A DNA stretch of 62,759 bases, counting the filler, from Collodictyon triciliatum (Eukaryota), in the NCBI GenBank assembly GCA_043381765.1. It is 11 parts of 11 records of this genome, joined end to end, with 100 filler letters (N's around TTAATTAATTAA, not from the genome) between each part and the next. Parts side by side here need not be neighbours in the genome. Positions count along the whole stretch, not along the records: positions 17,160 to 22,776 come from JBHJMP010005072.1; 10 more parts are not named here. The stretch is one strand, 5' to 3'. Every line of letters begins with the position of its first letter. Within the stretch, counting starts at the first letter, position 1. Under the pieces are notes generated by a model, which saw only the letters and a program-made list of their open reading frames with translations, was not told the DNA's origin and ran no database searches. Below are positions 17,160 to 22,776 of this stretch, one piece after another. A program made the translations under genes and the position numbers.

Positions 17160-20100
17160 ACAAGTGTCTTTTGTTGAGTATCAGTATGACCATATTGGTT
17201 GGATTCGGAATGCACTAGTGTCTTTTGTTGGGTGTCAGTATGACCATATTGGTTGGATTCGGAATTCACTAGTGTCTTTTGTTGGGTGTCAGTATGACCA
17301 TATTGGTTGGATTCGGAATTCACAAGTGTCTTTTGTTGAGTATCAGTATTACCATATTGGTTGGATTCGGAATTCACTAGTGTCTTTTGTTGAGTATCAG
17401 TATGGCCAAATTGGTTGGATTCGGAATGCACTAGTGTCTTTTGCTGGGTATCAGTATGGCCATATTGGTTGGATTCGAAATTCACAAGTGTCTTTTGTTG
17501 AGTATCAGTATGGCCATATTGGTTGGATTCGAAATTCACAAGTGTCTTTTGCTGTGTATCAGTATGACCATATTTATCAGATTCGGAATAAACTGGTGTC
17601 TTTTGCTGTGTATCAGTATGACCATACTTGTTGGATTCGAAATTCACTGGTGTCTTTTGTTGGGTGTCAGTATGACCATATTGGTTGGATTCGGAATGTA
17701 CTAGTGTCTTTTGATGGGTATCAGTATGACCATACTTGTTGGATTCGAAATTCACAAGTGTCTTTTGTTGGAAGTCAGTATTACCATATTGGTTGGATTC
17801 GGAATTCACTAGTGTCTTTTGTTGGGTGTCAGTATGACCATATTTGTTGGATTCGGAATAAACCGGTGTCTTTTGCTGGGTATCAGTATGGCCAAATTGG
17901 TTGGATTCGGAATTCACTAGTGTCTTTTGTTGAGTATCAGTATGGCCAAATTTGTTGGATTCGGAATGCATTGGTGTCTTTTGTTGGGTGTCAGTATGTC
18001 TGTATCTATCAGATGCGGAATATACCGGTGTCTTTTGCTGGGTATCAGTGTGTCCATATTGGTTGGATTCAGAATACACCGATGTTTTTTGTTGAGTATC
18101 AGTATGACCGTACTGGTTGGATTCGGAATGCATTGATGTCTTCTGCTGCGTATCAGTATGTCCATATTGGTTGGATTCGGAATGCACTTGTGTCTTTTGA
18201 TGCGTATCAGTTTCACCATATTGGTTAGATTCGGAATTCACTAGTGTCTTTTGCTGGGTATCAGTATGACCATATTGATTGGATTCGGAATGCATTGGTG
18301 TCTTTTGCTGAGTATCAGTGTATCCATATTGATTGGATTCGGAATAAACCGGTGTCTTTTGTTGAGTATCAGTTTGACCAAATTGGTTGGATTCGGAATA
18401 AACCGGTGTCTTTTGCTGGGTATCAGTATGGCCATATTGGTTGGATTCGAAATTCACTAGTGTCTTTTGTTGGGTATCAGTATGACCATATTTGTTGGAT
18501 TCGGAATAAACCGGTGTCTTTTGCTGGGTGTCAGTATGTCCATATTGGTTGGATTCGGAATGCACTTGTGTCTTTTGCTGGGTATCAGTTTCACCATATT
18601 GGTTGGATTCGGAATACACTGGTGTCTTTTGATGCGTATCAGTTTCACCATATTGGTTGGATTCGGAATAAACCGGTGTCTTTTGTTGAGTATCAGTATG
18701 ACCATATTTATCAGATTCGGAATGCACCGGTGTCTTTTGCTGGGTATCAGTATGTCCAAATTGGTTGGATTCGGAATAAACCGGTGTCTTTTGTTGAGTA
18801 TCAGTATGACCATATTGGTTGGATTCGGAATTCACAAGTGTCTTTTGCTGGGTATCAGTATGACCATATTTATCAGATTCGGAATGCACCGGTGTCTTTT
18901 GCTGGGTATCAGTATGTCCATATTGGTTCGATTCAGAATAAACTGGTGTCTTTTGTTGAGTATCAGTATGACCATAATAGTTGGATTCGGAATAAACCAG
19001 TGTCTTTTGCTGAGTGTCAGTATGACCATATTGGTTCGATTCAGAATACAATGATGTCTTCTGTTGGGTATCAGTATGTCCATATTGGTTCGATTCAGAA
19101 TAAACTGGTGTCTTTTGTTGAGTATCAGTATGTCCATATTTTTTGGATTCGGAATTCACAAGTGTCTTTTGTTGGGTCTCAGTATGACCATATTGGTTGG
19201 ATTCGGAATATACCGGTGTCTTTTGCTGAGTATCAGTATGACCATATTGGTTGGATTCGGAATTAACGGGTGTCTTTTGGTGAGATTCAGTATGTCCATA
19301 CTTGTTGGATTCGGAATACACTGATGTCTTTTGCTGGGTATCAGTTTGTCCATACTTGTTGGATTCAGAATACGCCGATGTCTTTTGCTGGGTATCAGTA
19401 TGGCCATATTGGTTGGATTCAGAATATACCGGTGTCTTTTGCTGAGATTCAGTATGTCCGTATTGGTTGGATTCAGAATATACCGGTGTCTTTTGCTGAG
19501 ATTCAGTATGTCCATACTTGTTGGATTCGGAATACAATGGTGTCTTCTGCTGGGTATCAGTATGTCCATAATTGTTGGATTCTGAAAATGCTGGTGTCTT
19601 TTGCTGGGTATCAGTATGACCATATTTATCAGATTCGGAATAAACTGGTGTCTTTGGCTGTGTATCAGTGTGTCCATATTTATTAGATTCAGAATACACT
19701 CGTGTCTTTTGCTGAGTATCAGTATTACCATATTGGTTAGATTTAGAATATACCGGTGTCTTTTGCTGAGTGTCAGTATTACCATATTGGTTGGATTCGG
19801 AATAAACTGGTGTCTTTTGATGGGTATCGGTATTACCATATTGGTTGGATTCAGAATAAACTGGTGTCTTTTGTTGAGTATCAGTATGACCATATTGGTT
19901 AGAATCAGAATAAACCGGTGTCTTATGTTGAGTATCAGTGTATCCGTATTGGTTGGATTCGGAATATACCGGTGTCTTTTGTTGGGTATCAGTATGACCA
20001 TATTTATCAGATTCGGAATAGAAGGGTGTCTTCTGCTGAGTATCAGTATGACCATATTGGTTGGATTCAGAATACAAGGGTGTCTTTTGCTGGGTATCAG

Positions 20101-22774
20101 TGTGTCCATATTTATTGGATTCGGAATAAACCAGTGTCTTTTGCTGGGTATCAGTATGTCCATATTTATTGGATTCAGAATTCATTGGTGTCTTCTGCTG
20201 AGTATCAGTGTTTCCATATTGGTTAGATTCGGAATGCATTGGTGTCTTTTGCTGGGTATTAGTATGTCCATATTTATTGGATTCAGAATTCATCGGTGTC
20301 TTTTGCGGAGTATCAGTATTACCATATTTATCAGATTCGGAATGCACCGATGTCTTTTGCTTAGTGTCAGTATTACCATATTGGTTAGATTCAGAATACA
20401 CTGGTGTCTTCTGCTGAGTATCAGTATGACCATATTGGTTGGATTCAGAATACACTGGTGTCTTCTGCTGAGTATCAGTATGACCATATTGGTTGGATTC
20501 AGAATACAAGGGTGTCTTTTGCTGAGTATCAGTATGACCATATTGGTTGGATTCAGAATACAAGGGTGTCTTTTGCTGGGTATCAGTGTGTCCATATTTA
20601 TTGGATTCAGAATTCATTGGTGTCTTTTGCTGAGTATCAGTATGTCCAAATTGGTTGGATTCGGAATAAATTGATGTCTTTTGCTGGGTATCAGTATTAC
20701 CATATTGGTTAGAATCAGAATAAACCGGTGTCTTATGTTGAGTGTCAGTGTGACCATATTTTTTGGATTCGGAATACAATGGTGTCTTTTGTTGAGTATC
20801 AGTATGACCATATTGGTTGGATTCGGAATGCACTGATGTCTTTTGTTGAGTGTCGGTATGGCCATATTGGTTGGATTCAGAATACACCGGTGTCTTTTGC
20901 TGGGTATCAGTATGTCCATAATTGTTGGATTCAGAATTCACCAATGTTTTTTGCTGAGTATCGGTATGACCATATTTGTTCGATTCGGAATGCACTGGTG
21001 TCTTTTGCTGAGTATTAGTATTACCATATTGGTTCGATTCAGAATACAATGGTGTCTTTTGCTGAGTATTAGTATGGCCATATTGGTTGGATTCGGAATA
21101 CACTGGTGTCTTTTGCTGAGTGTCGGTATGACCGTACTGGTTGGATTCGGAATATACCAGTGTCTTTTGCTGTGTATCAGTATGTCCATATTTGTTCGAT
21201 TCAGAATACACTGGTGTCTTTTGTTGAGTATCAGTGTATCCATATTTGTCGGATTCGGAATAAAATGATGTCTTTTGTTGGGTATAAGTATTGCCATATT
21301 TGTTCGATTCAGAATACACTGGTGTCTTTTGCTGAGTATTAGTATGACTATAGTGATTGGATTCGGAATATGCCGGTGTATTCTGAGTATCAGTTTGTCC
21401 ATATTGGTTGGATTCAGAATTCACTGATGTCCTTTGTTGGGTGTCAGTATTACCATATTTGTTAGATTCAGAATACACTGGTGTCTTATGCTGGGTATCA
21501 GTTTGTCCATATTGGTTGGATTCAGAATTCACTGATGTCCTTTGTTGAGTATCAGTATGACCATATTGGTTGGATTCGGAATATACCGGTGTCTTTTGTT
21601 GGGTATCAGTGTATCCATATTGATTGGATTCAGAATGTACTTGTGTCTTTTGTTGAGTATCAGTATTACCATATTGGTTGGATTCAGAATAAACTGGTGT
21701 CTTTTGTTGGGTGTCAGTATGACCATATTGGTTGGATTCGGAATTCACTGGTGTCTTTTGATGGGTATCAGTATTACCATATTTGTTGGATTCGGAATAT
21801 ACCGGTGTCTTTTGCTGGGTATCAGTGTATCCATATTTATTGGATTCAGAATACACTGGTGTCTTCTGCTGAGTATCAGTATGACCATATTTATTGGATT
21901 CGGAATAAACTGGTGTCTTTTGCTGAGTATTAGTATGTCCGTACTGGTTGGATTCGGAATGCATTGATGTCTTCTGCTGAGTATCAGTATGACCATATTT
22001 ATTGGATTCGGAATAAACTGGTGTCTTTTGCTGGGTATCAGTATGACCATATTGGCTAGATTCGGAATGCACCGGTGTCTTTCGTTGGGTATCAGTGTAT
22101 CCATATTGGTTGGAATCGGAATACGCTGATGTCTTTTGCTGGGTATCAGTGTATCCATATTGGTTGGATTCGGAATAAACTGGTGTCTTTTGATGGGTAT
22201 CAGTATGTCCATATTTGATGGATTCGGAATAAACTGGTGTCTTTTGTTGAGTATCAGTATGACCATACTGATTGGATTCGGAATACAACGGTGTCTTTTG
22301 TTGGGTGTCAGTATGACCATATTTGATGGATTCGGAATAAACTGGTGTCTTTTGTTGAGTATCAGTATGACCATATTGGTTGGATTCGGAATGCACTGAT
22401 GTCCTTTGTTGAGTATCAGTATTACCATATTGGTTGGATTCGGAATACAATGGTGTCTTTTGATGGGTTATAGTATGGCCATATTTGTTTGATTCGGAAT
22501 ACACTGATGTCTTTTGTTGAGTATCAGTTTGTCCATATTTGTTGGATTCAGAATACACCGATGTTTTTTGTTGGGTGTCAGTATGACCATATTTGATGGA
22601 TTCGGAATAAACTGGTGTCTTTTGTTGAGTATCAGTATGACCATATTGGTTGGATTCGGAATGCACTGATGTCCTTTGTTGGGTGTCAGTATGACCATAT
22701 TGGCTGGATTCGGAATGCACCGGTGTCTTTTGATGGGTAATAGTATGGCCATATTTGTTTGATTCGGAATACAC
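17160..22774 (-). CDS. Internal fragment of a giant 18-aa tandem-repeat protein (consensus YSESNQYGHTDTQQKTPV), >1870 aa, no true start or stop seen
   Basis: Only this frame stays open across 5.6 kb while the other five frames are broken by stops. Much of the unit-to-unit variation is synonymous, and the one short unit noticed (~21380, QTDTQNTPAY) has a 3-nt in-frame deletion. Confidence 0.8.
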
Positions 22775-22776
22775 TG
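17160..22776 (-). repeat. 54-bp tandem array, about 104 diverged units, filling the whole contig
   Basis: Plus-strand consensus approximately GGTGTCTTTTGYTGRGTATCAGTATGACCATATTGGTTGGATTCGGAATAMACY, repeated end to end between the two linkers. Confidence 0.97.

Follow-up and report, generated by a model that had tools for sequence, protein, structure and literature searches.

A probably transcribed orphan array of 18-residue polar repeats in the Collodictyon triciliatum assembly: the middle part of a giant repeat protein under selection, with a tentative beta-rich fold

Is the 54-nt tandem array that fills positions 17160-22776 of a stretch of the Collodictyon triciliatum assembly GCA_043381765.1 (contig JBHJMP010005072.1) a gene or a satellite, and, if it is a gene, what kind of protein does it encode? 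The window analysed here is the whole stretch, 62,759 nt long, and all positions are counted along it. An earlier reading of this DNA, called the original prediction below, proposed a giant protein of 18-residue units that resemble the repeats of bacterial ice-nucleation proteins (INPs). The best explanation that we can offer is that the array is the middle part of a transcribed nuclear orphan gene for a giant structural repeat protein, which is probably a polar beta-rich rod. Taken as a whole, this explanation stands evenly poised between belief and doubt. Its parts differ in strength. That the array is coding and expressed deserves much more confidence than the whole, and the fold and the role deserve much less.

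Tandem Repeats Finder reports one array at 17164-22776, with a period of 54, 104.0 copies and 84% matches. The array is made up of 103 units of 54 nt and one unit of 51 nt. Its consensus, VYSESNQYGHTDTQQKTP, is a one-residue rotation of the unit given in the original prediction, YSESNQYGHTDTQQKTPV. The minus-strand frame that starts at 22774 contains 0 stops in 1871 codons, whereas the other five frames contain 30, 182, 23, 25 and 134 stops. The sole length variant is the 51-nt unit at 21374-21424 (minus strand), which is one codon short, remains in frame and is translated as VNSESNQYGQTDTQNTP. Both the count of about 104 units in a single stop-free frame and the single in-frame 3-nt length variant, as first proposed, are borne out. 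A tryptic peptide series would be expected from TPVYSESNQYGHTDTQQK and its variants.

Such an array could also be a non-coding satellite, for example a centromeric or subtelomeric one. One frame would then be open by chance, and the matches in RNA libraries described below would be DNA carry-over or non-coding transcripts. A satellite agrees with several features of the locus: the contig is unplaced and consists only of the repeat, as satellites often do, the consensus unit is open in four of the six frames, and no relative or annotated protein was found in any collection searched. However, the variation among the units is ordered by the reading frame. In the unit statistics, which cover the 103 full-length units and leave out the 51-nt unit, nucleotide diversity at codon positions 1, 2 and 3 is 0.138, 0.055 and 0.301, respectively. 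This is the order of a coding sequence (position 2 < 1 < 3), and the excess of position 3 over position 2 has a permutation p of 4e-5. By the Nei-Gojobori method, the nonsynonymous (dN) and synonymous (dS) divergences among units in the open minus-strand frame are 0.104 and 0.636, giving a dN/dS of 0.164. This ratio confirms the mostly synonymous variation noted in the original prediction and lies far from the value near 1 that was named there as the mark of satellite DNA. Four of the other frames have a dN/dS of 0.86-2.7. The remaining frame, which is antisense and has its fast positions in common with the open one, has a dN/dS of 0.25, but its consensus carries a stop, so that the low ratio is confined to the minus-strand frame among open frames. 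Per codon, the ratio of nonsynonymous to synonymous polymorphism (pN/pS) is at most 0.17 at 10 of the 18 codons (among codons 3, 5, 6, 8, 9 and 11-16), and codon 17 is invariant. The relaxed codons are 1, 2, 7, 10 and 18, with a pN of 0.20-0.33.

The absence of stops was compared with three neutral expectations. When the observed number and spectrum of changes are spread evenly over the consensus, the model predicts 51.2 +/- 6.9 stops, and none of the 2000 simulations is free of them. When the observed columns are permuted among sites with the same consensus base, the expectation is 51.3 stops, and 2 of 2000 simulations (0.1%) reach zero. Shuffling the letters inside their own columns leaves 2.07 stops expected and 1.25% of simulations at zero. 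Furthermore, 621 substitutions from the consensus stand beside a single indel in 5.6 kb, which is in frame. On the grounds of the phase-dependent diversity, the dN/dS of 0.164, the 0 stops against about 51 expected and the one in-frame indel, we reject the non-coding satellite, which is scarcely credible. The frame of the array is a protein under selection, not a neutral satellite, and here the original prediction holds.

Freezing of silent sites is uneven across the unit. All 103 units have ACA at codon 17, 99 have ACT at codon 11, and 98 have GAA at codon 4, where GAG never occurs; codon 2 ends in T throughout. Other silent sites have a synonymous polymorphism (pS) of 0.4-1.2. AT-biased mutation accounts for most of these frozen sites, but not for codon 16, which is AAG in 96 of 103 units. 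A constraint at the nucleotide level on the silent sites is possible.

The units are old copies. In nucleotides, 100 of the 103 units are distinct, and they encode 83 distinct peptide units. Identity from unit to unit is 0.82-0.84 at all lags from 1 to 80. No higher-order repeat or local homogenisation was found, since identity is flat with lag except at lag 100, which is represented by three pairs. Selection on the peptide, rather than concerted evolution, holds the units alike. Twelve of the 18 positions are conserved in at least 85% of the units despite a dS of 0.64. Ser5, Thr11 and Thr17 are each present in 103 of 103 units. They are followed by Gly9 (101), Thr13 and Lys16 (99 each), Ser3, Glu4 and Gln15 (98 each), Tyr8 (97, with Phe in the other six), Gln14 (92), Asp12 (91) and Asn6 (88). 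The variable positions are Val1 (79, otherwise Leu, Met, Ala, Phe or Ile), Tyr2 (62, with His in 20 and Asn in 20), Gln7 (62, with Lys in 36), His10 (74) and Pro18 (62, with Leu in 20 and Ser in 17). The three invariant residues are exactly six apart, a spacing shared by 6 of 816 possible triples in a post hoc count. The unit can be written as three hexads, VYSESN, QYGHTD and TQQKTP, with Ser or Thr in the fifth place and Asn, Asp or Pro in the sixth.

Is the array expressed? A run index lists 22 runs, of which 20 hold 5-13% of the sampled words of the array. The runs come from 13 studies; 10 runs are recorded as RNA, and nearly all runs are labelled as freshwater or wetland metagenomes. Four runs were mapped. 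X1, X2 and X4 are metatranscriptomes from three studies, and X5 is a run from a named organism whose RNA status was initially a guess. In X1, X2, X4 and X5, respectively, 102, 84, 181 and 673 contigs map to the array at 90-100% identity, covering 29, 27, 30 and 30 of 30 bins of the array; the uncovered bins in X1 and X2 carry no meaning. Depth says nothing about the level of expression here, because the runs consist of assembled contigs and 767 of the 1040 mapped ones have more than one possible position in the array.

The strand is indicated by two contigs of X5. One of them runs at position 17623 (minus strand) into the reverse complement of the Smart-seq/SMARTer oligo, which marks the 5' end of the cDNA, and the second template-switch junction, at 21710 (minus strand), has the same orientation. 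The sequence of the template-switch oligo and its role as a label of the cDNA 5' end are given in the available part of PMC9245221. These ends identify X5 as a cDNA library and place the 5' side of the RNA on the same strand as the open frame, the minus strand. The array is thus probably transcribed from the minus strand, and it is present in cDNA or RNA libraries from several freshwater studies, as the original prediction would have it. Differences between the RNA contigs and the window also bear on the satellite discussed above. Of 120 such differences, 40 were classified: codon positions 1, 2 and 3 account for 12, 4 and 24 of them, respectively, 18 leave the residue unchanged, and 0 create a stop. 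This is unlike a satellite, although the differences are not independent evidence, as many may be cross-mapped paralogous units.

Relatives of the protein were sought in several collections. A 540-residue piece was run with phmmer against 1.84 billion representatives. Of the 126 rows at E <= 0.001, 15 reach E <= 1e-10 and 0 reach E <= 1e-30; the best row has an E of 2.1e-25, and identities are 13-49%. The eight rows inspected among the 126 are ankyrin and other unrelated periodic proteins, and these rows were rejected as relatives. A word-indexed search of 5.8 billion clusters gave no match among proteins that are shorter than the query or close to it in length. Two weak rows, P0128 and P0129, came from longer proteins and are the only echo of the array found at the sequence level. 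Both contain about 25 copies of an 18-residue repeat (...LITQYGNTDTxNYTLxQD...) and have QYGNTDT and the period in common with the array. However, identity is 28-29% over 58% of the query, and the two proteins are long and membrane-anchored. The rest of their unit is hydrophobic (Leu, Ile, Val, Met), with many N-x-T sequons, of which the array has none. Most probably, their likeness to the array stems from a chance match of the motif, which the periodicity multiplies.

Searches by DNA pattern, structure collection and profile added no relative. A degenerate DNA pattern matches 74 of the 104 units in the window. Its shortened form, which was used for the scans, found 0 loci in JGI metagenome contigs, GTDB genome contigs and IMG/VR. 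A related-locus search of metagenomes gave one match, at 27% identity. A sequence search of the PDB gave 0 matches at E <= 1, and a features search of the ESM Atlas gave nothing usable (best score 0.88, recognition 711). The only Pfam rows are DUF3106 (PF11304) and the suprabasin GxHH repeat. DUF3106 reaches 93.2 bits in 21 stretches against a cut-off of 24.3 bits, but this is an effect of composition: a true Xanthomonas member, P0130, which scores 77.9 bits, is rich in Trp, Arg and Glu, and BLASTP aligns it at 13% identity with an E of 0.72. The suprabasin row (78 bits) was likewise judged compositional. The array protein is an orphan in every collection covered by these protein and DNA searches; the literature searches were not aimed at this peptide.

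What fold might such a protein adopt? The fragment has a mass of 214 kDa, an isoelectric point of 5.9 and a grand average of hydropathy (GRAVY) of -1.74. Its most abundant residues are Thr (16.5%), Gln (14.0%), Ser (12.1%) and Tyr (9.0%), with Lys at 7.4%, Asn at 7.1%, His at 5.7% and Pro at 3.5%. Thr, Ser, Gln, Asn and Tyr together make up 59%, and each unit has one aliphatic residue. In the 1871 residues there are 0 Cys, 0 Trp, 8 Arg and 0 N-x-S/T sequons. AlphaFold2 was run on ten units. In the first run, with nine non-overlapping segments of the array, the mean predicted local distance difference test (pLDDT) is 56 and the predicted template modelling score (pTM) is 0.50; the five models have pLDDT values of 56, 50, 45, 25 and 23, and the strands are SESNQY and TDTQQK. 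In the second run, with 84 sliding segments of the array, the pLDDT is 78 and the pTM is 0.65; the models have values of 78, 59, 57, 46 and 44, and the strands are VYSES and YGHTDT, with QQKTP as a loop. Both AlphaFold2 models are regular solenoids with one coil and two strands per unit.

If these models are a guide, each 18-residue unit would form one coil of a long polar rod that resembles a beta-solenoid. At 4.8 A per coil, the fragment would be about 50 nm long. Nearly every residue of the unit would have a fixed role in structure or recognition. Ser, Thr and Gln would abound in the core, and Tyr ladders, as well as charged or His ladders, would line the outside. In the hexad register, the V/Q/T and S/T/T positions would point inward, and Tyr and the Glu/His/Lys ladders would point outward. 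Our best guess for the role of the rod is that of an abundant fibre in a freshwater protist, with a structural, coat or adhesive function.

Structural comparison returned several kinds of look-alike. The weak top rows of Foldseek for model 1 are LpxD, LpxA and related left-handed beta-helix acyltransferases (E 0.2-5), which have 18-residue coils. The left-handed beta-helix of the LpxA/LpxD type has a coil of 18 residues made of three hexapeptides, with a small Ser, Thr, Ala or Val every six residues. The invariant Ser5, Thr11 and Thr17 of the array, six apart, recall this pattern. However, no PF00132 row appears at E <= 10, the Foldseek rows fall short of significance, and a coil of three strands appears in neither model. 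Moreover, the aliphatic residue by which the hexapeptide motif is defined is found in one hexad of the three: hexad 1 begins with Val, and the others begin with Gln/Lys and Thr. VIA-align places 3p4g_A first for both models, with a Z of 16.2, a root-mean-square deviation (rmsd) of 2.2 and 176 residues for one, and a Z of 17.0, an rmsd of 2.3 and 180 residues for the other. Curli CsgA (8c50_A) is second for model 2 (Z 16.8, rmsd 7.6 A), and dozens of unrelated beta-helices follow at Z 10-15. CsgA (8c50, 8enq) resembles the array in its short Ser/Gln/Asn/Gly-rich strand-turn-strand repeats, stacked as a polar beta-solenoid. CsgA is a secreted bacterial protein with 5 to about 15 repeats of 19-23 residues. 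The array differs from it in having at least 104 units and in lying in a eukaryote, the rmsd to 8c50_A is large, and no Curlin_rpt (PF07012) row appears at E <= 10.

The best structural match, 3p4g, is region IV of the antifreeze protein MpAFP/MpIBP, a Ca2+-bound, beta-helical domain that binds ice and belongs to an adhesin from Marinomonas primoryensis. According to the available part of PMC3492233, region IV of MpAFP consists of thirteen 19-residue RTX-like repeats with the pattern GGxGxDxUx and an outward, ice-binding face of Thr and Asx. Its coil of 19 residues is close to the 18 of the array. Unlike the array, region IV is RTX-like, needs Ca2+ and has 13 coils, whereas the array has one Gly per unit and an aligned identity of 2-11%. 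In line with this, GG.G.D occurs 0 times in the 1871 residues, and PF00353 gives no row at E <= 10. The match is one between a low-confidence model of the array and the most regular solenoid in the PDB.

Does the array belong with the ice-nucleation proteins? The consensus of PbINP is AGYGSTQTAGEESSLT, with 65 repeats of 16 residues and the functional motifs T-x-T, S-L-T and Y-G-S, according to the available part of PMC9418140. The eukaryotic ice nucleators found in print are fungal (the INpros of Mortierellaceae), and the available part of PMC12978214 describes them as InaZ orthologs gained by gene transfer. Like the members of this family, the array strings together a very large number of short polar units, at least 104 of 18 residues against 65 of 16 in PbINP. 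Thr, Ser and Tyr abound in both, and a beta-solenoid with one coil per repeat is the predicted fold of each. The hexapeptide pattern Y-G-x-T-x-T occurs 92 times among the 104 units, or 98 times as [YF]-G-x-T-x-T. It unites the Y-G-S and T-x-T motifs of the INPs in a form whose third residue is His, Asn, Tyr, Gln or Glu and never Ser. This much of the proposed likeness stands, but nothing beyond the motif does.

Kinship with InaZ-type proteins is not upheld. On the 1871-residue translation, PF00818 gives no row at E <= 10, a range in which rows above about 0.1 are mostly removed by the filters of HMMER. The positive control, a 192-residue segment of a Xanthomonas INP, scores 371.8 bits. INP genes were taken from Xanthomonas and Pseudomonas genomes by a back-translated pattern, and 16 segments from six loci were aligned. 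In hhalign, 84 segments of the array against these 16 INP segments give a probability of 0.16% and an E of 0.37 over 6 columns (YGHTDT/YGSTQT). The period is 54 nt, or 18 residues, in 103 of the 104 units, instead of the 16 residues of INPs, and the repeat is laid out as three hexads and not as 8+8 residues. The second water-organising motif, S-[LIV]-T, occurs 0 times in the 1871 residues. The array also lacks the Ala/Gly-rich positions of INPs, and the residue between the two Thr of T-x-T is Asp in 91 of 103 units and not Gln or Ser. Membership of the InaZ family is ruled out by the absence of PF00818, the 6-column alignment, the period of 18 and the lack of S-L-T.

An ice-binding or ice-nucleating beta-solenoid could also have arisen by convergence, with one coil per unit and Y-G-x-T-x-T as water-ordering ladders of Thr and Tyr. 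The frequent Y-G-x-T-x-T matches the YGSTQT of the INP consensus AGYGSTQTAGEESSLT in the available part of PMC9418140. Thr is the most abundant residue, the antifreeze domain 3p4g_A is the top structural match of both models, and the matching runs come from fresh waters, where ice forms. Besides the lack of homology, the different period and the absence of S-[LIV]-T and GGxGxD, however, the geometry is unfavourable. If both Thr of T-D-T faced outward, the charged Asp of 91 units in 103 would be stacked in the core. In the hexad register both Thr would be turned inward, so that they would not form an outer ice-binding face. In addition, 3p4g is a generic best match for very regular solenoid models, and the fold itself is only predicted. 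We consider a convergent ice-binder very improbable, and an ice function of the array protein is unsupported. The same applies to a bolder form of the idea, in which an independently evolved eukaryotic water-organising beta-solenoid rod of at least 50 nm, with 18-residue coils and a ladder of Y-G-x-T-x-T, with no InaZ ancestry and widely expressed in fresh waters, would bind or nucleate ice or bind another crystalline or ordered surface. Its origin would lie in a deep-branching freshwater protist. We regard it as a long shot.

The more serious alternative to the rod accepts the same gene. Its repeat could be an extended disordered chain, probably O-glycosylated or phosphorylated, which would be mucin-like, hydrogel-like or adhesive and in which the TDTQQKT(P) blocks would be recognition sites. 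The composition agrees with such a chain, given the GRAVY of -1.74, the 59% of Thr, Ser, Gln, Asn and Tyr, the lack of Cys and Trp and the few aliphatic residues. The conserved stretch T11-T17 is contiguous and covers both strand faces, as linear motifs would, and in 62 of 103 units the residue after Thr17 is Pro. The inconsistency of the AlphaFold2 models between runs also speaks for it, as does the tendency of AlphaFold2 to over-predict solenoids, for which the available part of PMC11795689 names mucin 22 as a natural solenoid prediction to distrust. However, repeats of the mucin type usually keep their composition and not the exact residue, while here 12 of 18 positions are conserved at 85% or more at a dS of 0.64. 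Gly9 is nearly invariant, and the hexads, with Ser or Thr followed by Asn, Asp or Pro, look like a regular turn pattern. Pro accounts for only 3.5% of residues, and in 37 of 103 units Leu or Ser stands in its place. The disordered chain is possible, though doubtful. Three features fit an ordered repeat better than mucin-like disorder: residues are conserved one by one although dS is 0.64, Gly9 hardly varies, and Ser/Thr followed by Asn/Asp/Pro recurs every six residues.

Several points weigh against the expressed, ordered rod that we favour. The strand register differs between the two AlphaFold2 runs, and the five models scatter in each. The higher pLDDT of the second run comes from an alignment that contains only overlapping pieces of the protein itself. 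For 32 of 78 random perfect repeats, AlphaFold2 returns a confident beta-solenoid, according to the available part of PMC11795689, and Foldseek finds no match to model 1 in the PDB at E <= 0.001. The original prediction of a beta-solenoid is partly borne out: AlphaFold2 draws one on ten units, but the registers disagree, the models scatter and the method has a known bias. We treat the solenoid, which the models indicate weakly, as a hypothesis and not as a result, because AlphaFold2 over-predicts solenoids for repeats, as reported in the same part of PMC11795689. The extreme hydrophilicity and the one aliphatic residue per unit also fit an unfolded or glycosylated chain. The RNA evidence consists of assembled contigs of 73-181 nt with no silent control, so that DNA carry-over is possible, and the strand call rests on two of two junctions, which is a small sample. 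The termini are missing, so no signal peptide, anchor or neighbouring gene backs a secreted or surface role. Finally, codon usage gives no answer as to whether the unplaced contig comes from the protist or from a co-sampled organism; the comparison was made with five Pfam-supported pieces of open reading frames (ORFs) on other contigs of the window, which is a small sample, and the array reflects the codon usage of its founder unit.

The array is a new repeat family within a familiar general kind, the giant proteins of short polar repeats. Most known examples, among them ice nucleators, curli, adhesins and mucins, come from bacteria and animals; the present one lies in the assembly of a freshwater protist that has been poorly studied. 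The orphan status, the constraint over about 104 old copies and the freshwater and wetland RNA matches point to an abundant and functionally demanding structural protein. If the regular polar solenoid is true, it would be a natural model for rods that have no hydrophobic core and a candidate binder of ice or other surfaces. For annotation, the locus illustrates that a real gene can lie on an unplaced contig made only of repeats, and that being neighbours in a linker-joined pseudo-scaffold carries no information.

The window (1-62759) is in fact such a pseudo-scaffold. It consists of eleven contigs of about 5.6 kb, in order of descending length, joined by the same linker ten times, and most of its contigs break at homopolymers or microsatellites. 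The linker, 44 N followed by TTAATTAATTAA and another 44 N, is an assembly product and not biological. It lies at 5622-5721, 11341-11440, 17060-17159, 22777-22876, 28493-28592, 34211-34310, 39927-40026, 45629-45728, 51339-51438 and 57049-57148. The linkers at 17060-17159 and 22777-22876 flank the array contig and join it to unrelated contigs. Since unplaced contigs are joined in this way, gene order across linkers is meaningless for any finding in the window. The array contig (17160-22776, minus strand) is whole and unplaced and holds an inner part of the gene, truncated at its ends, as an ORF of 1871 codons with codon 1 at 22774. Because 17160-22776 is a complete contig between linkers, both ends of the gene are absent, and its neighbours in the window are not its neighbours in the genome. 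An N-terminal domain of the INP type, Arg-rich C-terminal coils and a cap would all lie beyond the available sequence.

On the contig that precedes the array in the chain there is a tRNA-Trp (CCA) gene at 16580-16651 (plus strand), which is unlinked to the array. On the contig that follows, a ParcG-like ORF lies at 23524-24315, and it is likewise not a genomic neighbour of the array.

The window holds other repeats. At 8930-10357 (minus strand), an open frame of 475 codons encodes almost only Arg-Ser and Gly-Ser dipeptides (SRSGSRSGSRS...) on a tandem array with periods of 12, 18, 30, 48 and 132 nt. It could encode an SR-like low-complexity domain, or the array could be non-coding. Adjoining it, the open frame at 10345-11154 (minus strand) has an FG-GAP repeat (Pfam E 8.6e-12). 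Another short repeat is found at 52535-52745 (plus strand), where about 20 ESKQ, ESKP or ESKT tetrapeptides with a 12-nt period lie inside the ORF at 52197-53273, which is otherwise non-repetitive and has no Pfam match.

Two open frames on one contig, at 40382-41308 and 43611-44789 (both plus strand), have an HMG box at their ends (Pfam E 1e-9 and 1.3e-10, respectively) and are possibly tandem paralogs. The open frame at 28545-29579 (minus strand) matches MCP-like_PDC_1 with 33.1 bits (cut-off 27) and dCache_1 with 44.1 bits, just below the cut-off of 45. This dCache_1/PDC frame is an extracellular sensor module on a eukaryotic contig.

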